A DNA stretch of 64,000 nucleotides from a virus: positions 83,568 to 147,567 of the IMG/VR virus record IMGVR_UViG_3300017917_001336. One strand, given 5' to 3'. Positions within the stretch are counted from its first letter, which is position 1; each line of letters starts with the position of its first letter. The notes under the pieces were generated by a model. It did no database searches. It was not told the origin of the DNA and saw only the letters and a list, made by a program, of their open reading frames with translations. The position numbers and the translations under genes were made by a program. Below are positions 10,011-41,017 of this stretch, piece by piece.

Positions 10011-10090
10011 TTACCGCGCGAAGCGGCAGCGCAGATTTTAAGAAGCGCGAAGCGTTAGCGCAAAAAAATAACCGCGAAGCGGCAACGGTA
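10011..10090 (+). repeat. GCGAAGC mini-hairpin cluster (left element)
   Basis: GCGAAGC at 10018, 10047 and 10074; inverted homologue at 23904-23936. Confidence 0.75.
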
Positions 10091-10566: not shown

Positions 10567-10773
10567 GGGCAAACCTGTAGCTAAGTCTAGTGCGGGATCT
10601 ACATGTTCTACACTAGAACCAAAACGTATAATAAACTCTGTTAGTAACGGACCTTCTGGGATCCAAAAACGTGTACGATTTAAGTGCATTTCACTGGCTA
10701 TACTATGACTCTTGATATAGTTGATAACGTGTACAAAGTTTGGATTTTGGGTTAGAATATAATAGTGTCTCAT
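10561..10773 (-). CDS. hypothetical protein
   Basis: 70-aa ORF; TAAATA upstream on minus. Confidence 0.55.
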   Translation of the reverse strand: MRHYYILTQNPNFVHVINYIKSHSIASEMHLNRTRFWIPEGPLLTEFIIRFGSSVEHVDPALDLATGLPL

Positions 10774-10901
10774 GCTAGAATATTTACTTGTGTGCCCTTG
10801 GGACGAGTATTATTATAGAGCCACATGTGATAACGATGTAGTGTATTGTAGCTAGTACGATTAGGCGGGGATTGTTTTAAGTATTGAGCAGTTGTCCACA
10901 T
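10770..10901 (-). CDS. 43-aa hypothetical protein (MWTTAQYLK...)
   Basis: AAGGAGCGAA RBS; ATGA overlap with 10561..10773. Confidence 0.55.
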   Translation of the reverse strand: MWTTAQYLKQSPPNRTSYNTLHRYHMWLYNNTRPKGTQVNILA

Positions 10902-11155
10902 AGTTTCGCTCCTTGTGACAACGTATTTAATGATATTTGACTATTGCCCAGAATGGGTCCTGCAGGATAAAAAAATAGCCGCGCAAAAAATTATAGGGAA
11001 GTACTTACAGATTCATGATGGTGATTTTGAGTCTATATGGGGTGTTTTTTTAGGTTGCGCTGTTGCAAAAATGCCACACATTTTATATTATATACCCCGA
11101 CCCCCCATAAACCGAACCGAGCCCCACCGACCACCGAGAGGCCGAACCTGAGACC

Positions 11156-11204
11156 AAAAAAAACCCCTAGGATACCGGGAGCGAATCGGGTTTATACCTA
11201 GGGG
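11156..11204 (-). terminator. intrinsic terminator of the early transcripts
   Basis: CCCCTAGG/CCTAGGGG stem followed by T8 on minus. Confidence 0.8.
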
Positions 11205-11297
11205 CACTACAAAGGCCGTTGCCTCGTTGGCGTCGACCGCTGACAGCTTACCGGGAGCGAATCGTTGGGCTGTCTACTACAGTATGCACTACAGCTC
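11156..11297 (-). ncRNA. candidate 3'-UTR-derived sRNA with two AUUCGCUCC anti-RBS loops, ending in an intrinsic terminator
   Basis: Hairpins 11242-11274 and 11164-11204 each carry loop AUUCGCUCC; U8 tract at 11156-11163; middle hairpin 11214-11238. Confidence 0.6.
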
Positions 11298-12203
11298 TTA
11301 GCGGCTGTTACGCATACACGTTACTTCTACTACGCTACGCCAGTTGCTGGGCATACTAACACGAATGTCCGCAACCTTAAGCACCATACGCAGGCTTAGC
11401 TCTCGCATACGCTCTGCATTGTTATTAATGTAGTCTACTACTTCTTGCTTGTCCTCATCAGTTAGCTTGTAGTCATCGAGCATACCGCACTCGTTAACTA
11501 CCTGCTTGATACGCAACAGCTTCTCACGGGTAGTATCAATAGTCAGATCCAAATAGTGACAACGTGACTCCAATGCTTCCAAGTGATCGCGCAGCTTCTT
11601 TGACTTAACGTGATCGAACTTGATGTTGCTAATAAAGATAGCACCACCGTGGAAGTCGAAACTGTTGGGCACACCTTCTTGTCTAAGCAAACGGCTGTCC
11701 GTGTTCCAATGGATAGTACGCTTCTTACCTGAGTCTAGCGCAGCCTTTAGGATGTTCAAGCTAAGGTCATCTAGCAGTACAGAGTCGCAGTCATCAAACA
11801 CTAGGATGCATTTACGATCGCTGAACTCGTAGAGCTTTTTGTACAAGCCAATGGCACTCATTGCGCCCTTGACTACTTCGTATTTCTTCAGCTTGGTATC
11901 GTTGGCTACATTAGCAAACACATCATGCTTGCCCAGTACCCGTTCTACACCAAAGCTCTTACCAACACCCGGAGGGCCAGTTACGATCATAGCACGAACA
12001 TCACCCTTCTTTACAGCACGGGTCATGTCTTCTAGAATCTGAAAACGTTGGCCCAAACGTTCCATAATACTTTCATCGGACTCGGCTTTGAGCTGGCGCT
12101 CTTTTTCTTTAATATAGTCCTTGTCCTGCTCCAAGCTGGCTGTAGTGCCTGCTGAGCTCTTTTTACCTTTGGGCATGTCTGCTAGTGTCATTACTTTTGC
12201 CAT
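11298..12203 (-). CDS. AAA+ family ATPase
   Basis: Walker A GPPGVGKS, Walker B ILVFDDCD, sensor ISN, Arg finger ALESR. Confidence 0.85.
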   Translation of the reverse strand: MAKVMTLADMPKGKKSSAGTTASLEQDKDYIKEKERQLKAESDESIMERLGQRFQILEDMTRAVKKGDVRAMIVTGPPGVGKSFGVERVLGKHDVFANVANDTKLKKYEVVKGAMSAIGLYKKLYEFSDRKCILVFDDCDSVLLDDLSLNILKAALDSGKKRTIHWNTDSRLLRQEGVPNSFDFHGGAIFISNIKFDHVKSKKLRDHLEALESRCHYLDLTIDTTREKLLRIKQVVNECGMLDDYKLTDEDKQEVVDYINNNAERMRELSLRMVLKVADIRVSMPSNWRSVVEVTCMRNSR

Positions 12204-12257
12204 GTGTGTTCGCTCCTTTATTTAAAACATCTAGTATACTATCGAATGCAGTCTTGG

Positions 12258-12416
12258 TCAACTCTTTTGAAACACGCTTTGCACATAGCACTCGGAGCCA
12301 TATTGGGCTTCTACTAGTGCTCGAGCCTGTTGCGGATGGTTGGCCTGAACCACTTGGGTAATGTTTCTCAGTTGGGTGTCGCCACCCACTGAGAATGTAA
12401 CTTCATACATGTTCAT
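12258..12416 (-). CDS. 52-aa hypothetical protein
   Basis: TAATG coupling to the upstream gene; MNMYEVTFSVGG...EAQYG. Confidence 0.6.
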   Translation of the reverse strand: MNMYEVTFSVGGDTQLRNITQVVQANHPQQARALVEAQYGSECYVQSVFQKS

Positions 12417-12757
12417 TAGTCGAGCCTCGAACCTGCGTAAGCATCAAACCCATACTTGCGGAGTACTTGGGCGCAAGCTTCTGCACCCGCTTCTAGTGTA
12501 TCCACGTTCTGGACATAGAGCCCGGATGGGTTCCAAAGCTGGAATGCCTTGTTATAGCTTTGGCGGATGCCTGCTTCTTTGAGTGTGCGACCCAGTTTGG
12601 TGTTGCCTTTGATACCCAGGATATCAACCCAGGCAAAGCCACATGCGAACTGGTCACGTCCGCCTAGTTTGGTTTGGAAGAACAGGGTTGCTGCTTCGGT
12701 AGCTGCTTGGCTAGCTTCTGCTACGATGTCTTTGACTTGCTCGACTGTATATTGCAT
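12416..12757 (-). CDS. hypothetical early protein (CGFAWV motif)
   Basis: Own promoter and GGAGCGA RBS. Confidence 0.75.
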   Translation of the reverse strand: MQYTVEQVKDIVAEASQAATEAATLFFQTKLGGRDQFACGFAWVDILGIKGNTKLGRTLKEAGIRQSYNKAFQLWNPSGLYVQNVDTLEAGAEACAQVLRKYGFDAYAGSRLD

Positions 12758-12929
12758 GGTTCGCTCCTTGCTGTGTTGTTTAAGTATGTATTATACTATT
12801 TCAGGGCCGGGTTGTCAACCGTTTGATTCCGGTATTTTTGGACTAGACCTTCTGCGGCCATTGCGATGCAGAGTATAGCAAGGAATGCCCAAAGCTCGAT
12901 GGTCATATAAAATGCGTTGATTACTTCGT

Positions 12930-13262
12930 TCATGCTGCCTCCTTAAGGGTTAGAATTTTTGCAGGGTAAGTAATAGAACCTTCCCACTCCAACTGGCTCT
13001 TTTCGAACTCAGTCATGTAATCATCGGCTACTACACCGTAGGACACGATGTATTGGCGTGAGCCTATATCATCCCACTCTACTTCAGAACGGAAGTAGTT
13101 GACCAGCTCTGCTAGAGCTTCATCGGAGCGACCTGCTGCACCCAGCGGATAGAAGTAGTCCTCACCGCCTTTGAACTTCCAATACTGTGGGCACTCGCCG
13201 GTGCCGTCCCAATCGTGGGCACCATAGTTTTCCATGTATTGGCAAGTAATGTGCAGTTTCAT
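12930..13262 (-). CDS. hypothetical early protein (ENYGAHDWDG..CPQYWKFKGG)
   Basis: Own promoter and GGAGCGAAT RBS. Confidence 0.8.
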   Translation of the reverse strand: MKLHITCQYMENYGAHDWDGTGECPQYWKFKGGEDYFYPLGAAGRSDEALAELVNYFRSEVEWDDIGSRQYIVSYGVVADDYMTEFEKSQLEWEGSITYPAKILTLKEAA

Positions 13263-13324
13263 ATTCGCTCCTTTGTTTAACTTATGCTGCTAGTATAGCA
13301 AATTTGGGCTAGGCTGTCAACCAA

Positions 13325-13552: not shown

Positions 13553-13636
13553 TGTATCGCTCCTTGTTAGTATGTGTACATTATAGCAAGGAACAGCCAA
13601 ACTGTCAACCGTTTGGTTGTTGTATTTTTACAACAG

Positions 13637-13713
13637 TGGCCTGCCCGGAGGGAATCGAACCCCCAACCTACGGCTTAGAAGGCCGTTGCTCTATCCGGTT
13701 GAGCTACGGGCAG
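13637..13713 (-). tRNA. tRNA-Arg(TCT)
   Basis: Cloverleaf CTGCCCG...CGGGCAGG-CCA, anticodon loop CT-TCT-AA, GGTTCGA T-arm. Confidence 0.95.
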
Positions 13714-13718
13714 ATGAA

Positions 13719-13796
<78 letters not shown>

Positions 13797-14164: not shown

Positions 14165-14530
14165 TTAGAAAGGTGCGTCTTCTGCGTCTGCAGGAACAGC
14201 AGCCTTAGCCTTAGTCTTTGACTGTGCCTTAGCAGGAGCCTTCGCAGGTGCTGCCTTAGCTTTAGGAGCTTTGGGTGCCTTAGGAGCCTTGTCTTCCAAG
14301 TACTCCGCAATCGCTGACTGTGCAGCGGCGTCCTGGAACTCGTCCATAGACTGAAGCTGTTTGACAGCCTCATACTTCGAAACAGCTTCGTCGAGCTCAG
14401 CAAGACGAATGTCTTCGTGGCCATGTTTAGCCAGTACTTTGATACGCATAATATCAGTTGCAAAGCGCACCTTGTACTCGCCATTGAGTTTCGAAACGCC
14501 AACGATGTTAAAAGTTTTATCTGTAGCCAT
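14165..14530 (-). CDS. hypothetical protein with a Lys/Ala/Pro-rich histone H1-like tail
   Basis: KAPKAPKAPKAKAAPAKAPAK tail; GAAAGAGG RBS before MATDKTF. Confidence 0.7.
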   Translation of the reverse strand: MATDKTFNIVGVSKLNGEYKVRFATDIMRIKVLAKHGHEDIRLAELDEAVSKYEAVKQLQSMDEFQDAAAQSAIAEYLEDKAPKAPKAPKAKAAPAKAPAKAQSKTKAKAAVPADAEDAPF

Positions 14531-14599
14531 TGTAATACCTCTTTCTGTGTGTGGTTTAAGTTTATATGCCAGTTTCCTTAGCATGTTTCTATTATAAGT

Positions 14600-14919: not shown

Positions 14920-15555
14920 TTACTTGCTACCATGTGGTTCCAATCCTCTCTTTTCAATGCCATCTTCATACCATTCCTGGACTTCGTCCATTTCCTCTGC
15001 TTCATACTCTGCCATTGACTCACTGATACCAAACATCTCGTCCAGTTCCTCGCCAATGGTGTCTACAACAGTCTTAGAGTTGGTGCCACCGTAATCGTAG
15101 CACTCGTCGTAACCGTCTTCGAACTTGCCCACATAAGCCATACCTGGCTCGTAGTAGTAAGCACGAACTTCAAAGCCTTGCTCAACCAACTCTTCGTAAA
15201 CACCCATAGGAGGGCTCCACGCAGAGTCAAATCCAAATTCAATAGTGTTGTCTTCTACAACAACAGCCTCAGGGTCATAAGCATCAACATCCCATTTGGT
15301 GCCCCAGCGGCCTACGCAGAAGTCATACCAGTTGCCATAGCCATACTTCTCGACATTTTCAGCAGTCTTACGAACCAATTCAATTTGGTCCGGGTTGTCA
15401 TCGCTACCCACGCAACCTGCTACAATGTTCAGGTCCTCTGGAACAGGAATGACGTGTTTAAGGAATCTGCCTTCGCGGACAGCACTCGCAAGCGCCTCTA
15501 TTTTAGCAGAGTCAGTGTGTGAAATTGTGACGTTGTTATTGCACCAATTAGGCAT
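14920..15555 (-). CDS. MPNWC-start protein (DUF1281/YubB ferredoxin-like family)
   Basis: MPNWCNN, NWYDFCVGRWGTKWD, FDSAWSPP, YYYEPGMAYVG. Confidence 0.75.
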   Translation of the reverse strand: MPNWCNNNVTISHTDSAKIEALASAVREGRFLKHVIPVPEDLNIVAGCVGSDDNPDQIELVRKTAENVEKYGYGNWYDFCVGRWGTKWDVDAYDPEAVVVEDNTIEFGFDSAWSPPMGVYEELVEQGFEVRAYYYEPGMAYVGKFEDGYDECYDYGGTNSKTVVDTIGEELDEMFGISESMAEYEAEEMDEVQEWYEDGIEKRGLEPHGSK

Positions 15556-15573
15556 AGTTCGCTCCTATGTTGT

Positions 15574-15837
15574 TTAAGAAAATTCGTAAAAGGTTACGCT
15601 AGGGTCAATGCTCATCAACTCGCGGGCTGCACGGCGCAGATAAGTTGCACGGTCCTGCAGGGCCTTACCACGCAGTTCGCCATCGCAAGTAAGGTTCTCT
15701 GGGCTAAGGTCCGCATCCAAAGAGTTCGCAATCTTCTGGCGGTCCTCTGCGTTGAGCAGGCTCAAGGCCTTGCTACCAAAGATAGCACCCCAACGGTTCT
15801 TTTGCTCTACATAGTGTTCGATAGTTGAAATATTCAT
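15574..15837 (-). CDS. hypothetical early protein (LSPENLTCDGE)
   Basis: Promoter and GGAGCGAA RBS. Confidence 0.75.
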   Translation of the reverse strand: MNISTIEHYVEQKNRWGAIFGSKALSLLNAEDRQKIANSLDADLSPENLTCDGELRGKALQDRATYLRRAARELMSIDPSVTFYEFS

Positions 15838-15883
15838 TTTCGCTCCTGTTTATTTACTATAACTCTATTGTAAGCTCAAATGA

Positions 15884-16307: not shown

Positions 16308-16512
16308 CGTAGGCCTCCTCGCCCAATTCAGTTACTTCTTCTTCCAGCACCATTACGTCAATGATGCGAGCTGTTTGATCTTCGTTGCTTACGCCCTGGA
16401 ACGCAGTACGAAAGGATTGATACTCACCGAGGAAGTCATAGACATCCATTCGGTCCCAGCCCTCTGGCACTTCAATCTCTTGCCGGAGGATAGTTGTTAC
16501 ATAGGCTTTCAT
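16300..16512 (-). CDS. hypothetical protein
   Basis: ATGA overlap, AAGGAGG RBS. Confidence 0.7.
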   Translation of the reverse strand: MKAYVTTILRQEIEVPEGWDRMDVYDFLGEYQSFRTAFQGVSNEDQTARIIDVMVLEEEVTELGEEAYDD

Positions 16513-16991
16513 GCTGCCTCCTTCTCTGCTTGGAACGCAAATGCTTCTTCCAGTGTAAGGAACTCGCCGTCAGTGCCGTAAAAGTCAACAAACCAAGTAG
16601 CCTTGCCGTTTACATTGCGCAGGATGTATTCGTACTCCTCACGCTGGTGCTCTCGTGCATATTCCTCAAAGTTCTTAAAACGCTTGGCACCCACACCCTC
16701 TTCGCCGCGATCGCGACCGTAGAAGGTAGTAATTTGTTGGCGTGCTTCTTGCTCTGCTTGGTACTCAGGGGTACCGTACTTGGCTTGTATGTCAAAGCTG
16801 TGCTTCTCGCCAATCTCAGGGCCCAGCGAGCTAACATCGCCCAAGTCCATAAGCTTCTGCACTTTGAAGGGATCCATGTAGTGATCGCGCAGGATAACAC
16901 CGTTGTGATCTAAGTAACCGTCCCAGTGGCAGTAGATCTGATCCACAGTACCGTCTGCGTATTCAATTGCAATAGTTGATCGTGTAGCCAT
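16509..16991 (-). CDS. conserved phage hypothetical protein (MATRS..IYCHWDGY)
   Basis: Promoter and GGAGCGAA RBS. Confidence 0.8.
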   Translation of the reverse strand: MATRSTIAIEYADGTVDQIYCHWDGYLDHNGVILRDHYMDPFKVQKLMDLGDVSSLGPEIGEKHSFDIQAKYGTPEYQAEQEARQQITTFYGRDRGEEGVGAKRFKNFEEYAREHQREEYEYILRNVNGKATWFVDFYGTDGEFLTLEEAFAFQAEKEAA

Positions 16992-17047
16992 TTGTTTCGC
17001 TCCTGTGTGTGTTTAAGCCTTAATTATACAACCTTTTGGGTCCGCTG

Positions 17048-17284: not shown

Positions 17285-17299
17285 CGCTCGCTCCTTGTT

Positions 17300-17497
17300 G
17301 ATTAATCTGTTGGGGAACTCCGGACTAGCCGCTAGCACCGTCTGCTAGATCGTCTGCCTTCGTCATTACCGCCTACCTTCTCCGCCGCTTCTCCGAGCTT
17401 ACGCCCTGTTTCATGTGCTTAGATTGAGCGTGACCGTCGCCACTGTCCTAACCCTCTAAGCACCTAACGGTGTAGGTAACCCCTAATTCCTTACTAT
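17300..17497 (-). ncRNA. candidate structured RNA / long 5' leader
   Basis: About 200 nt non-coding after promoter 17504-17532; stems GTGCTTAGA/TCTAAGCAC, CTAGCA/TGCTAG, TTACC/GGTAA. Confidence 0.45.
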
Positions 17498-17500
17498 GTG

Positions 17501-17758
17501 TTAATTATAAGCCCAAACCTCAACCTTGTCAACCTCTGCAATAACCCTACTGCCTGTATGGGTAATGTAAACTTTAGTACTATCTGTACCGCCTTCAACT
17601 AGGAAGACAGCCATGTAGACGAATTGCCCACCGTTGCTTATGCCCAGGAACTTGCACGAGCTGAACGCAGGGCCCTTATAGCCATTCTCGCGGGCTAGGC
17701 TGTTGAGCGTAGGCCCATTGTAGGAGATAAGAGTTTTTAGTGTCTCTGGGGTAATCAT
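17501..17758 (-). CDS. hypothetical protein
   Basis: GAGGAGCC RBS. Confidence 0.65.
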   Translation of the reverse strand: MITPETLKTLISYNGPTLNSLARENGYKGPAFSSCKFLGISNGGQFVYMAVFLVEGGTDSTKVYITHTGSRVIAEVDKVEVWAYN

Positions 17759-17907
17759 TTAGGCTCCTCAATTTTTAAGTTAGACAACACGGCTTCTAGT
17801 GTGTCGTAAGCCATTTGCCAACGATCCCCAGGGATGTTATAGATCTGACTAATAGCATCGTTGAGAGTAGCTAGAGCCTCTAGCTTCTTGTAGTCTTGCT
17901 CAGTCAT
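17755..17907 (-). CDS. 50-aa hypothetical protein
   Basis: ATGA overlaps at both ends. Confidence 0.6.
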   Translation of the reverse strand: MTEQDYKKLEALATLNDAISQIYNIPGDRWQMAYDTLEAVLSNLKIEEPK

Positions 17908-18224
17908 TCTGCATCCTCCTCTACTGCTTCGTCTTCCAAGCAGTCAAAGCAGTCCTCTACACGATTGTGTCCCTGATAGATAGTGTAGTCGCCAATTTGT
18001 GTTTTACATTCTTTGTCAATGTACTCGAAGCCGCCGTAGTACTCTAAGCTACGGGCATTGTCGCTAACAATAACACGCTCGCCTCTGTCAATGTACACAC
18101 GGCCGCAACGGATGTCTAGTCCCAGCTTGTCAGCACTCACCCGTTCCATACCCGCTACAAAACGCTCAATGCCGTAGCTAACCTCGTCTACAACATCCAA
18201 AATGCTAGTGCAGTCTTTAAACAT
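17904..18224 (-). CDS. hypothetical early protein (LEYYGGFEY)
   Basis: Promoter and GGAGCGAA RBS. Confidence 0.75.
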   Translation of the reverse strand: MFKDCTSILDVVDEVSYGIERFVAGMERVSADKLGLDIRCGRVYIDRGERVIVSDNARSLEYYGGFEYIDKECKTQIGDYTIYQGHNRVEDCFDCLEDEAVEEDAE

Positions 18225-18280
18225 AGTTTCGCTCCTTTTGTTTAACTTAGCCTATAGTATAGCACCGAGGGCCCAAACTG

Positions 18281-18517
18281 TCAACCCCATGCTTTCAATA
18301 ACCCTGCACAGCACACAAGTATTCCCGCAAGGTTGACAAGGATTTGTGCTTTGTTGCGTACCCTATAGCTCCACATAAAATAAAAGCTACCACCGCATAG
18401 CCCTGCTACTAAATTGTAGGGGTACAGTTGGGGGTAAAAAGACATTAATATGTACATTGTGAGGAGGCACATAGTGCCTGCCCACTGTAGCATATTATTA
18501 AACATTGTCTGCCTCAA
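18281..18517 (-). CDS. small membrane protein (about 3 TM)
   Basis: Hydrophobic segments; true start may be 18505. Confidence 0.6.
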   Translation of the reverse strand: MRQTMFNNMLQWAGTMCLLTMYILMSFYPQLYPYNLVAGLCGGSFYFMWSYRVRNKAQILVNLAGILVCCAGLLKAWG

Positions 18518-18683
18518 ATTCCATTACGTCACAGCGCAAGTCCTCTACAATGTCCTCAATCCTGCAATGCGTCTCATAGCACACGTCACTGTCACCCAGT
18601 GCATCTTGTATAAGTGCGTCTGCGTCCTCTAGCAATTCCATTGCCTCGCGCAGTTTAGCTGCTTTTTGTTTTGCTGTTAGCAT
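18498..18683 (-). CDS. hypothetical early protein (proline-free)
   Basis: Promoter and RBS; inside the GA/GG-free tract. Confidence 0.7.
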   Translation of the reverse strand: MLTAKQKAAKLREAMELLEDADALIQDALGDSDVCYETHCRIEDIVEDLRCDVMEFEADNV

Positions 18684-18761
18684 AGTGTCGCTCCTTGCTG
18701 TTTAAGTGTTTTAATTATAGCGCACATAGCCCAATCTGTCAACCATGTGCGCTTGTGTTAA

Positions 18762-19094
18762 TTAAAACGCCCCTTCAAAAATTTGTTGTGTTTCGTATGC
18801 ATACAAATCGCCTGTAGCCTTTTCGCGTACAGTAATCCAATCCTGTGCATAAAAGCGTTCTTGCTCATATGCGCTACCCATAAAAAAGTAACAGTCTACA
18901 GTCTCAAACTCAATCTCGTCTGTAGCAAATTGTTTAACAATGTATTCACCACATTCATCAGCGTCTAACGCATACCCGTGTTCACCAACGCTACCTAGTA
19001 CATTAGCAATCCAGCGTTCCTGCTGCTCTTGCGTGTCCTCTGTGTATGTAATGTCTTGCAGTTTGCACAATTTTACAAAATTACGCTTTTCCAT
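18762..19094 (-). CDS. acidic hypothetical early protein (proline-free)
   Basis: GGAGCGAA RBS; inside the GA/GG-free tract. Confidence 0.7.
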   Translation of the reverse strand: MEKRNFVKLCKLQDITYTEDTQEQQERWIANVLGSVGEHGYALDADECGEYIVKQFATDEIEFETVDCYFFMGSAYEQERFYAQDWITVREKATGDLYAYETQQIFEGAF

Positions 19095-19160
19095 TTTTCG
19101 CTCCTTCTAATTACAGTACAGCTAGTATAGCACAGCTAGCCTAGCTGTGCTGTGCTTACA

Positions 19161-19484
19161 TTACGCCTCCATGCTAGCAAGCTCGTCCTCTTGCATACCT
19201 TGTTCTGTAAAGCTAACAGCAAAGCCTACAGCGTCACTAATAGCAGTTTCAAACCCACTATCTGTATAAATGTCCCATGTGCTGTTGTGTTGCACATTTA
19301 CCATTGTATAAAATTCGCTGTCGTAAATGTTATTAATAATAGTAATACCTGTTACATTAATAACACGCCCTGCCTCACAGCCCCACAAGCCGTCGCCTGC
19401 TGTAGTAACTGTAAATGCACACATAAATTCTGTAATAATACAGTCTACGTCACGCTCGTAACGCACAAGCACTAATTTTTGCAT
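19161..19484 (-). CDS. hypothetical early protein (GDGLWG, YTDSGF, FTEQGMQ; proline-free)
   Basis: Promoter and RBS; inside the GA/GG-free tract. Confidence 0.75.
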   Translation of the reverse strand: MQKLVLVRYERDVDCIITEFMCAFTVTTAGDGLWGCEAGRVINVTGITIINNIYDSEFYTMVNVQHNSTWDIYTDSGFETAISDAVGFAVSFTEQGMQEDELASMEA

Positions 19485-19567
19485 ACATCGCTCCTTTTGC
19501 TACTTAAAAAACAATTATAGCACAGCAAGCCCAAAATGTCAACTTGCTGTGCTAATAACCCTACAGT

Positions 19568-19798
19568 TTAGTCTATTATTTGCACATTAGCACAGCGCAA
19601 AGTCTGCATAGCAGTATTAATGCTTTTTAATACTTCTGCTTGTGCATTTACATAATCTGTACTACAAATATCTCCTGTAACTAGTACAGCATTTTTAACA
19701 GTTACTACATTATGCTTATCAAAACTAAAAATTACGCGATAAGTGTTAAGACGCTTGTTTACTACTACTTTAGCTAACACAGTACAATTTGTTTGCAT
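19568..19798 (-). CDS. hypothetical early protein (proline-free)
   Basis: Promoter and GGAGCG RBS. Confidence 0.7.
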   Translation of the reverse strand: MQTNCTVLAKVVVNKRLNTYRVIFSFDKHNVVTVKNAVLVTGDICSTDYVNAQAEVLKSINTAMQTLRCANVQIID

Positions 19799-19846
19799 AC
19801 ACGCTCCTTCTAAGTGTTTGTATTATAGCGCAGCTAGCCCAAAATG

Positions 19847-20320: not shown

Positions 20321-20580
20321 ATGCTCCAGTATGCCTCGCTGGATGGGCTACAGTATCTGGGCGTATCAAATCGTTCCATGTACTCTTTACCACCCATCAT
20401 GTTGATCCGCTTGACCATAGTCTCATGGATTTCATAGCGGAACCCTTGACTGGCTCGCCACGTATGCTTGACAGTATGCTCTAGGGTCTTGAGGTCTGTA
20501 GTATCATAGTCACTATAATGCACTCGGCGCTCGCCTGCCTTGGTGCGAGCATCCTTTTTGTATATGATAACGGTATACAT
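20317..20580 (-). CDS. hypothetical protein (TPRYCSPSSEAYWSM C-terminus)
   Basis: TAATG coupling, GGAGG RBS. Confidence 0.7.
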   Translation of the reverse strand: MYTVIIYKKDARTKAGERRVHYSDYDTTDLKTLEHTVKHTWRASQGFRYEIHETMVKRINMMGGKEYMERFDTPRYCSPSSEAYWSM

Positions 20581-20858
20581 TATGCAGCCTCCAACATTGA
20601 CAGTGGAACGGAGTAGACCATGTTCATGCTAGGGATATGCACATCGGCCTTCTTGATCTTGATCTTGCGGATCGTTCCCACTACGGTACCACCCAACTTG
20701 GCATGGGTCAGTTTAACCTTATCGCCACTGTGGAAGGTGCAGGCGTTAACCCGGGCAGTCTTTGAACGGGCAAAGGCCACAGCGTCTACAATACTTTGCA
20801 GATCCTGCGCAGACCACGCACCCGAAATAATTGCACGATTGATAGTACCAATATCCAT
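20580..20858 (-). CDS. hypothetical protein, possible SH3/KOW-like C-terminus
   Basis: Promoter and GGAGCG RBS; FHSGDKVKL..GTIRKIKIK. Confidence 0.65.
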   Translation of the reverse strand: MDIGTINRAIISGAWSAQDLQSIVDAVAFARSKTARVNACTFHSGDKVKLTHAKLGGTVVGTIRKIKIKKADVHIPSMNMVYSVPLSMLEAA

Positions 20859-20937
20859 TTCACGCTCCTTTTTGTCTAAGTGTTTCTATTATATGCTCAA
20901 ACGCACCCGCTGTCAACCTACTAAGCAGCGGGGCCTA

Positions 20938-21642
20938 TTATGCAGCTACAGCGATTGGAATCATACGGCGAACGAACCCAGTGGTGTCCTTCTTAGCACG
21001 ACCCTTAGCCTTAAGCCCTGCGATGCAACCCTTAGGGTCCAAAAAGCGCAGGTCAGTGTCGTCTGCATTAATTACAGGACGGCCCATGTAAGAGTCTGGG
21101 AGCTTGTCAAAGACAGCAGCCACGTTCATACCTGCACTCACTGCCTTTTGTACGTCTGCTTCGTTACCGTCTGCAGCTGAGAACGTCAAGTGATAGTTGG
21201 GCAGGTGTGCTACCTTGCGTCCAAGCACCTTAGTATAGTCATAGAACTGTACATTGGGGAACTTCTCAATGATACCGTACTTCTCCCAAGCCAAGTCCGA
21301 TGTACCGTTAAGGCGGAACACGGGTGTCAAACCCAGCTTCGCAGACTGTTTGATGCCCAGCTTGATGTCCTTCTCCAGCTGAGCCATAAATGCATCACGC
21401 TGCTCAAAGAACATCCTAGTCTTGCGAATGCGAGCCTGCTGGATCATGTTGGTGTTTTCACCGCGCTTGAACATACCACCGCGCCCGGCAGTATTCAAAC
21501 AGGCAGCGGTACAGCCTGCGGTGCGCTTAGGGCAAGTCTCCTTACCGGACAGCGTCGCAGGAGCAAGATGCAGAATAAAGCTAAGATAGCCCAATTTTGC
21601 ACCCTTTTGGATCTTGGGATTTGCAGTACTTAGAAGTTTCAT
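20938..21642 (-). CDS. gp88-like protein (Cys-triad, radical-SAM-like)
   Basis: CPKRTAGCTAACLNTAGRG, FRLNGTSD, QFYDYTK, NYHLTFS, DLRFLD, GLKAKG. Confidence 0.7.
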   Translation of the reverse strand: MKLLSTANPKIQKGAKLGYLSFILHLAPATLSGKETCPKRTAGCTAACLNTAGRGGMFKRGENTNMIQQARIRKTRMFFEQRDAFMAQLEKDIKLGIKQSAKLGLTPVFRLNGTSDLAWEKYGIIEKFPNVQFYDYTKVLGRKVAHLPNYHLTFSAADGNEADVQKAVSAGMNVAAVFDKLPDSYMGRPVINADDTDLRFLDPKGCIAGLKAKGRAKKDTTGFVRRMIPIAVAA

Positions 21643-21698
21643 GTTCGCTCCATGTTCGTTTAAGTTAGCCTATAGTATAGCAAGAATTAATAACCCTG

Positions 21699-40444: not shown

Positions 40445-40468
40445 GATTCATAGGAGCGTAAATACGCT

Positions 40469-41017
40469 ATGAATTTAATTGGCAATTTATTAATCGCACC
40501 ACCCGCAGTCAAAGGTAACTTCTGGTATAAAACAGTTATCATGGTAACTGAAAACCACATGCAGGGATCAGTCGGTCTTGTACTAAACAAGCGAAGTCAT
40601 ATGTCTATTAAAGAGTTTGGATCAGAGCTCGGGTACGACATAGACTTACCTGGATTTGTTTATCTTGGCGGCCCTGTTAATGTAAAGAGTCTTAGTTTCT
40701 TACATAGCAACGAATGGGTAAGCAAGAACACAATGCGTATCAGTAACGAGTTTAGTCTAAGCTCGGCAGATGACATACTTCCTCGTTTAGCTATGGGTGA
40801 TACTCCAGAACGTTGGAGATTATTTTTGGGCATGTGTGGTTGGGCACATGGACAGCTAGCAGGCGAAATAAAAGGAAAAGCACCTTGGACACATGAAACA
40901 AGTTGGCTTTTGGCTAGTGCTGATTCAGAATTGGTTTTTGGCAACGATAATAAAGAACAATGGTGCAACGCCATTGATAGAGCCGGTTTAGAGTTTGCTC
41001 AAAATATGTTGGCATAA
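40469..41017 (+). CDS. algH: YqgE/AlgH family protein
   Basis: LLIAPP, GSVGLVLNK, YLGGPV, LGMCGWAHGQLAGEI. Confidence 0.88.
   Translation: MNLIGNLLIAPPAVKGNFWYKTVIMVTENHMQGSVGLVLNKRSHMSIKEFGSELGYDIDLPGFVYLGGPVNVKSLSFLHSNEWVSKNTMRISNEFSLSSADDILPRLAMGDTPERWRLFLGMCGWAHGQLAGEIKGKAPWTHETSWLLASADSELVFGNDNKEQWCNAIDRAGLEFAQNMLA

Follow-up and report, generated by a model that had tools for sequence, protein, structure and literature searches.

Does a phage ATPase gene's 3' untranslated region (3'UTR) yield an RNA that addresses whole classes of the phage's own genes through their ribosome-binding sites (RBSs)? The question arises from an earlier inspection of the letters alone (the sequence-only reading) of the final 64 kb of a 147,567-bp viral record, a stretch of 64,000 nucleotides here called the window. 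The record derives from an uncultured giant phage from a lake, carries T4-like replication and virion genes and is approximately 40% complete, its near-complete relatives measuring 345-364 kb.

The 3'UTR element and its genomic surroundings

The ATPase gene is the final gene of an island of short minus-strand genes, which extends over approximately 10.5-24 kb of the window and holds 16 near-consensus sigma70 promoters (Table 1). Its closest cultured homolog, in Pseudomonas phage PA5oct/Paride, has 46% identity. No internal promoter was found within the gene, and the RNA element is therefore probably made only as the end of the ATPase mRNA, or of a longer mRNA from upstream.

Two loop-bearing hairpins, the second of which is an intrinsic terminator with a U8 tract, and a middle hairpin between them were found on the minus strand, just as the sequence-only reading had placed them. 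The loop that it described as common to both also proved exact, as the 14-mer CGATTCGCTCCCGG is present in two copies in the window, against none expected even allowing one mismatch. Both 9-nt loops are predicted to be unpaired, with per-base probabilities of 0.76-1.0. The folding energy of the region as a whole is no better than that of shuffled sequences (z -1.03), and the structure of the element consequently rests on comparative data. The motif UGUAGU does precede both loops, as had been pointed out, but it is not conserved, two copies being present in 0 of 29 non-redundant relatives. An antisense decoy RNA from the plus strand, displaying the tag itself, was also considered and was ruled out by the U-tract terminator and the better folding on the minus strand.

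Several other features of the window were recorded. The early island includes tRNA-Met and tRNA-Arg(TCT) genes (13637-13796, minus strand) and a conserved non-coding RNA of approximately 200 nt (17295-17500, minus strand) with its own sigma70 promoter (17504-17532). This RNA recurs, 69-86% identical, in about 20 loci of clade 1, its consensus fold has 25 pairs, 12 of them with two-sided changes, and the blocks GGTTACC and GTAAT are invariant; it has no match in Rfam, and the gene following it often differs in relatives. A small Lys/Ala-rich protein (14165-14539, minus strand) has its own promoter, an untagged RBS and no Pfam match, and in other clade-1 phages the loop module sits in the 3'UTR of similar genes. 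Directly past the terminator, a conserved non-coding block (10940-11150, minus strand) marks the island border in most clade-1 relatives. It consists of a G-rich run, TATATA, ACAACAGCGC, AAATCACCAC, AAGTACTT, a T-run GCGCG and GGACCCATT, and may serve as a signal for an origin, for packaging or for a terminus. The left border of the island also has a GC-rich GCGAAGC hairpin element (10011-10060). Lastly, the RBS of an AlgH-like (DUF179) gene (40453-40471, plus strand) has GGAGCG followed by TAAATA within a small hairpin, which would mask the Shine-Dalgarno (SD) sequence on longer transcripts, cf. the RBS hairpins of T4 late genes.

Table 1. Features of the element, tagged RBSs in the window, and leader/3'UTR matches of ATPase genes in related phages (positions are those of the window; L numbers denote loci in relatives).
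Feature	Position	Strand	Remark
3'UTR element (putative antisense RNA)	11156-11297	-	Small hairpin, loop hairpin 1, middle hairpin, loop hairpin 2/intrinsic terminator, U8; kept in 60/60 nearest loci
Small fourth hairpin	11276-11296	-	Directly after stop codon
Anti-tag loop 1	11251-11264	-	14-mer; 9-nt loop, G-C closed; in hairpin 11242-11274
Middle hairpin	11214-11238	-	No anti-tag; similar GCC-loop-GGC-AA hairpin in 8/29 relatives
Anti-tag loop 2	11175-11188	-	Apex of terminator hairpin 11164-11204
U8 tract of terminator	11156-11163	-
Host gene of the element	11298-12203	-	301-aa AAA ATPase, phrog_1250, T4 nrdC.10 homolog; own RBS tagged
Promoter of ATPase gene	12233-12261	-	sigma70-type
Tag	10906-10912	-	RBS of 43-aa ORF 10770-10901; TAAATA late-type promoter, outside early transcript
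Tag	12210-12216	-	ATPase's own RBS, 8-nt complement
Tag	12761-12767	-	RBS of 12416-12757
Tag	13263-13271	-	Perfect 9-nt complement; RBS of 12930-13262
Tag	13557-13563	-	RBS of gene with start 13552
Tag	15559-15565	-	RBS of operon-internal gene 14920-15555
Tag	15840-15846	-	RBS of 15574-15837
Tag	16997-17003	-	RBS of 16509-16991
Tag	17288-17294	-	RBS of gene with start 17284
Tag	18229-18235	-	RBS of 17904-18224
Tag	18688-18694	-	RBS of 18498-18683
Tag	19098-19104	-	RBS of 18762-19094
Tag	19488-19494	-	RBS of 19161-19484
Short tag (6 nt)	19802-19807	-	RBS of 19568-19798
Short tag (6 nt)	20863-20868	-	RBS of 20580-20858
Tag	21645-21651	-	RBS of 20938-21642 (GP88 family)
Sister-clade leader/3'UTR match	L290		AGGAGCATTC
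Sister-clade leader/3'UTR match	L311		GAGCTAGACA
Sister-clade leader/3'UTR match	L315		AGGAGCGTG
Sister-clade leader/3'UTR match	L300		CAGGAGCTA
Sister-clade leader/3'UTR match	L347		TGAAAGGGGT
Sister-clade leader/3'UTR match	L330		CTGACACAGA
Sister-clade leader/3'UTR match	L294, L322		Bulged, 13-bp
Leader/3'UTR match	L270 (basal)		13 bp upstream + 7 bp downstream of SD

Tagged ribosome-binding sites

The proposed target of the loops, GGAGCGA, was found 18 times in the window, against 2.19 ± 1.48 expected. Fourteen of these matches lie at RBSs on the minus strand and GGAGCG occurs at two further RBSs, giving 16 tagged RBSs, while no comparable cluster exists in the remainder of the 147.6-kb record. 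These counts, and the perfect 9-mer, are as the sequence-only reading gave them, but it had taken all of the genes as early, which does not hold for the 43-aa ORF past the terminator with its TAAATA promoter. Using the 9-nt loop as query against 162 candidate leaders from the whole record, the 14 best-pairing leaders were those of tagged genes, as the suggested pairing would have it. Early sites mostly form only 6-8 bp with the loop (mean 7.7).

Pairing of the loop with the tag was calculated at -14.8 kcal/mol, versus -7.0 kcal/mol for the standard 16S anti-SD, which reaches AAGGAG only; the earlier argument that the anti-SD leaves the following CGA(A) unexplained was thus upheld. The early tags are situated approximately 20 bp past the -10 box, in promoter-leader cassettes that resemble each other. 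Their spacing to the ATG is tight (sd about 2 nt), and that to the promoter looser (sd about 4).

Conservation and clade-level covariation

In clade 1, the exact 11-mer was found within 260 nt of the ATPase stop codon in all of the 60 closest ATPase loci, with two copies in 52. As these loci were anchored on the ATPase, this is the unbiased figure for conservation, whereas the conservation of the loop columns over 209 distinct elements is circular, since the motif was used to select them. In 208 of the 209, the bases on either side of the loop form a Watson-Crick pair (C-G 181, T-A 24, G-C 3), while the outer stems are unrelated in sequence and lack any column conservation. The transcript strand gives the better fold in 140 elements and its complement in 63, with 353 versus 188 G-U pairs, and the seed is exposed in 166. 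By these comparisons, the element is an RNA scaffold presenting a fixed loop.

Loops and tags differ between clades in the same manner. Clade-1 leaders of promoter-led early genes have GGAGCG in 373 out of 588 cases and GAGGGC in none. Clade 2, a branch nested within clade 1 with 100% support (quick IQ-TREE run, midpoint root), has GCCCTC-type loops in 56 out of 57 loci, with one to five copies each (one to three loops in clade 1), and its promoter-led leaders have GAGGGC in 176 out of 267 cases and GGAGCG in none. Neither clade's loop was found in the 3'UTRs of the other, and a complete 357-kb record repeats this pattern. One locus, L061, has both GGAGCA and GGAGCG leaders together with one matching loop variant for each, and is a possible transition state. 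Furthermore, ACGCTC is retained beside the new motif in 22 out of 36 clade-2 elements, perhaps as a relic of the old loop. Since most RBSs in clades 1 and 2 share one tag, a ranking of each RBS against 168 others by duplex energy was uninformative there, and the counts were used together with a permutation test in the sister clade (see below). Variants in the targets that would form G-U wobble pairs showed no clear preference (GGAGTG 4 versus GGAGCA 41).

The module is mobile: other members have it behind a 90-aa winged-helix gene adjoining the ATPase or behind a Lys/Ala-rich gene, and in every case a terminator follows. Loops are missing from many ATPase homologs, and in many clade-1 phages the loops sit behind a gene other than the tagged ATPase. 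A relative that seemingly kept the tags and lacked the loops (L065), which would have spoken against the proposal, has its loops behind two other genes. In 27 of 36 clade-2 loci, and in 3 of 29 clade-1 loci, the first anti-tag begins at most 5 nt from the stop codon. The covariation of loop and early RBS, which had been named as the decisive test, was hence found between clades, and gene by gene in the sister clade. Evolution has altered loop and tag in concert many times over.

A probable second target class among late genes

In the relatives, genes with TAAATA late-type promoters were also found to have the reversed loop pattern as their RBS. These encode CsgF, CsgG, a GTA-type holin with three TM segments, DUF4337, FecR and autotransporter-domain proteins and a 93-aa membrane protein. 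Among orthologs of these genes, those of clade 1 have GGAGCGA and those of clade 2 mostly GAGGGC or something close to it, and sister-clade orthologs are untagged. The mean late match is 8.7 nt versus 7.7 nt for early genes, and single matches can extend over 11-15 nt, those of 13-15 nt with stem bases included; these longer matches explain why the 11-mer is kept invariant in full when the early genes use no more than 6-8 nt of it. Some late leaders have an additional site upstream of the RBS (10-15 nt in L129, L184 and L450; also in G022), which cannot act as an SD and suits an RNA with two loops.

Apart from the 43-aa ORF past the terminator, the tagged late cluster is absent from the fragment in the window. 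The sequence-only reading, which held middle and late genes to be untagged, was therefore correct for this 40%-complete record but not for near-complete relatives, and its view that only early host-takeover genes are targeted has to be given up, the late envelope and holin-like genes being tagged as well, often with longer matches. A late curli-type secretion cluster, with CsgF, CsgG, FecR, autotransporter-domain and signal-peptide proteins, was located at 282-286 kb in G019, 278-288 kb in G017 and 325-327 kb in G020, and occurs also in L105, L108, L128 and L129.

Predicted single-gene pairing in the sister clade

The ATPase gene of the sister clade has a short 3'UTR with a terminator, and this 3'UTR matches the leader of the same gene through at least eight different sequence pairs (Table 1). 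The helix score of own leaders against own 3'UTRs was 498, compared to 372 ± 15 for permuted combinations, and none out of 100,000 permutations reached 498. All sister-clade and basal representatives with a short 3'UTR were included, among them five without evident pairing; the rows are not independent, although tag sharing among related rows makes the test conservative. In G012 (171 kb) and G013 (88 kb), no gene other than the ATPase has a credible tagged RBS. It is plausible, though more than the midpoint-rooted tree itself shows, that the single-gene form is ancestral, and the trait has also been lost, as some sister-clade members have no pairing.

In PA5oct, the leader of the ATPase gene EST35_0359 has a 12-bp match, including G-U, to a hairpin just past the stop codon (L218, 11690-11703 and 12868-12890). 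It ranked first out of 26 leaders but may be due to chance, as the match sits in a stem. The leader GGAGTAGCA is shared by a second promoter-led gene, EST35_0069.

Proposed mechanism and alternatives

That the loops pair with a barcoded class of RBSs, as first proposed, is strongly supported by the covariation at both clade and gene level and is not explained by the host anti-SD. From this comparative evidence, RNA-RNA pairing of loops with tags as such is very likely. Somewhat less firmly, we consider it probable that an antisense RNA encoded in the 3'UTR pairs in trans with the tagged ribosome sites and represses their translation. One to five identical single-stranded loops would be exposed at an early transcript's 3' end, in this phage that of the nrdC.10-like ATPase mRNA. 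These loops would pair with the phage-specific SD extension on chosen phage mRNAs and on the ATPase's own leader, the duplex covering the RBS and lowering translation. As no internal promoter was found, the active species would be either the whole ATPase mRNA or a processed 3' fragment protected by the terminator; an anti-tag beginning at the stop codon fits a cut near the stop, and equally a ribosome-coupled model. The accumulating RNA would then damp many strong single-gene early transcripts, as negative feedback or as a timer. It may also set a threshold for late genes of the envelope, holin-like and curli-type kinds, which would bind it more tightly through their longer or doubled sites, until late transcripts out-titrate it; we assume that an early-made repressor with its best matches in late genes needs titration or decay for these to be expressed. 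Hfq is not encoded by the phages, and pairing would have to proceed unaided or with a chaperone from the host. Against this reading also stand the short matches of most early sites, the finding that G-U wobble variants are not clearly preferred in the targets, and the unremarkable folding energy of the region. Computed support comprises the complementarity, the exposure of the loops, folding of the transcript strand, repeated coevolution and a tag position that is fixed relative to the start codon; we infer the expression and processing of the RNA, its pairing in vivo, the repression and its timing. Repression is the best reading of the pairing because the duplex covers the SD, and because loops that do so repress translation in RsaE (PMC2790875), LhrC (PMC4132741) and icaR (PMC3868564).

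Pairing with the same sites might instead favor expression, by shielding GGAG from an endonuclease, by tethering tagged mRNAs to each other or to a place where translation occurs, or by closed-loop recycling, in which terminating ribosomes would open the helix at a stop-codon anti-tag and be handed to the start codon. The nearness of the first anti-tag to the stop codon, prevalent in clade 2, speaks for this, as do the longest matches being those of late genes, which are needed when the RNA is plentiful, and the pairing that flanks the SD in L330 and L270. We nevertheless hold it to be unlikely, since the duplex nearly always covers the SD and outcompetes 16S pairing, no conserved second segment able to bind the ribosome was seen, no RegB-like nuclease was matched in five records (a search without positive control), and the single-target self-loop is easier to read as negative feedback. 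A related thought is that the RNA guides a protein, e.g. the phage ATPase, the adjoining winged-helix protein or host RNase III/E, to cleave or remodel tagged mRNAs; the strictly invariant loop with little tolerance for wobble and the recurring middle hairpin would suit this, and pairing in icaR recruits RNase III (PMC3868564). The module, though, also moves to the 3'UTRs of a winged-helix and a Lys/Ala-rich gene and is missing from many ATPase homologs, i.e. it is not tied to the ATPase, and its stems have no common sequence for a protein to read. Duplexes of 7-9 bp are moreover short for RNase III, and we give a guide function rather little credence.

Could the pairing act only in cis, closing the ATPase mRNA 5' to 3' as in icaR, with all other tags as by-products of copied promoter-leader cassettes? 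The early cassettes are indeed alike and the tag is confined to the ATPase gene in G012 and G013, and cis action may be right for the sister clade. As a general account it is improbable, given late genes with unrelated leaders and promoters that carry and switch the tag, loops situated behind a gene other than the tagged ATPase, up to five loops per element and a tagged operon-internal gene (15565). The position of early tags relative to the -10 box would permit an operator, and tag and loop could then be two orientations of one double-stranded DNA site for regulation, recombination or packaging. This is very improbable: the motif reads without exception in the sense direction at gene starts and in the antisense direction within 3'UTR loops, spacing tracks the ATG rather than the promoter, folding of the transcript strand is rich in G-U, the bulged and split pairings (L270, L294, L322) make sense for RNA only, and one clade alone has at least eight unrelated sequence pairs. 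Finally, variant anti-SD tails occur in some bacteria, and the tag might be an ordinary SD for a host with an unusual 16S 3' end, the loops being incidental. Most other genes of the same records use ordinary GGAG-AA/AT sites, however, the tag differs between close phage lineages and belongs to a single gene in the sister clade, and the loops would be left without explanation, which makes this hardly credible. A scan for a variant 16S end, using a loose pattern, gave no 16S-like match among the 120 matches listed.

Relation to known regulators

Searches of the record against Rfam returned tRNAs only, the element being unmatched at gathering or E-value thresholds, and the element had no DNA match in cultured phages. 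Close in layout are the cuckoo or CcsR1-4 sRNAs (RSs0680, alpha-r14) of Alphaproteobacteria, in which 2-4 hairpins lie side by side, their stems variable and one anti-SD-like loop repeated among them; the CcsR RNAs are released by RNase E from the 3'UTR of a small upstream gene (PMC4615179, PMC8034643). The phage element likewise has adjacent hairpins, variable stems and a repeated loop motif (1-5 loops), and its location in a 3'UTR would fit release from an mRNA tail. The cuckoo loop CCUCCUCCC is, however, fixed and mimics a generic anti-SD, whereas the phage loop, AUUCGCUCC in clade 1 or GCCCUC in clade 2, matches a private SD extension and changes between lineages together with dozens of targets. 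It was found only on phage records, with no occurrence on an alphaproteobacterial replicon and no match to the Rfam model.

In the Staphylococcus aureus icaR mRNA, a motif in the 3'UTR base-pairs with that mRNA's SD, blocks initiation and recruits RNase III (PMC3868564). The phage 3'UTR also complements the SD region of its own mRNA, as seen in the 8-nt match at the ATPase leader (12210 region) and in the sister-clade permutation test, but icaR concerns one gene and one motif with no demonstrated action in trans, while the phage layout exists in many sequence versions and has been extended to gene classes. In RsaE (PMC2790875) and LhrC (PMC4132741) of Firmicutes, unpaired, redundant C/U-rich motifs bind SD regions by base-pairing and block initiation, with no requirement for Hfq, which resembles the presumed action of the phage loop. 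The clade-1 loop ends in UCCC, with the last C predicted to be paired, and the clade-2 loop has no UCCC. Unlike the phage element, which has no internal promoter and matches no Rfam family, these are stand-alone sRNA genes with their own promoters that read ordinary SDs, and no private tag or loop-tag coevolution has been reported for them. The element thus works like cuckoo/CcsR, RsaE, LhrC and icaR, but is a member of none of these groups. In T4, RegB/S1 and RegA shut off early mRNAs as a class after transcription, acting at the translation-initiation region, and RegB reads an extended GGAG (PMC3014915); these are proteins and the phage element is an RNA, though the role would be alike. Neither RegA nor RegB had a match in five records, four of them near-complete, and no control genome gave a match either.

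Significance

The element is real, conserved and coevolving, and we infer its function to be regulation by anti-SD loops with an address private to the phage. No phage RNA that rules gene classes through a private, coevolving RBS tag was found in Rfam or in the literature searched, which covered few subscription papers. Natural orthogonal RNA-RBS pairs are hereby supplied, namely two clade-wide and at least eight single-gene ones, together with a rare and well-sampled record of a regulon arising from single-gene feedback and then being re-addressed. For these phages, the element offers an answer to how strong early promoters read by the host polymerase may be damped without RegA/RegB. More tentatively, and with somewhat less than even confidence, we suggest an aquatic jumbo phage family with an RNA-addressed translation code, in which self-pairing of an ATPase mRNA widened to a master regulator, its complement being written into the RBSs of dozens of early and late envelope and lysis genes, and in which the address was rewritten genome-wide more than once, passing through intermediates with two loop types. 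If so, an RNA would in these phages do the job of the T4 proteins RegA and RegB, and might also time lysis.
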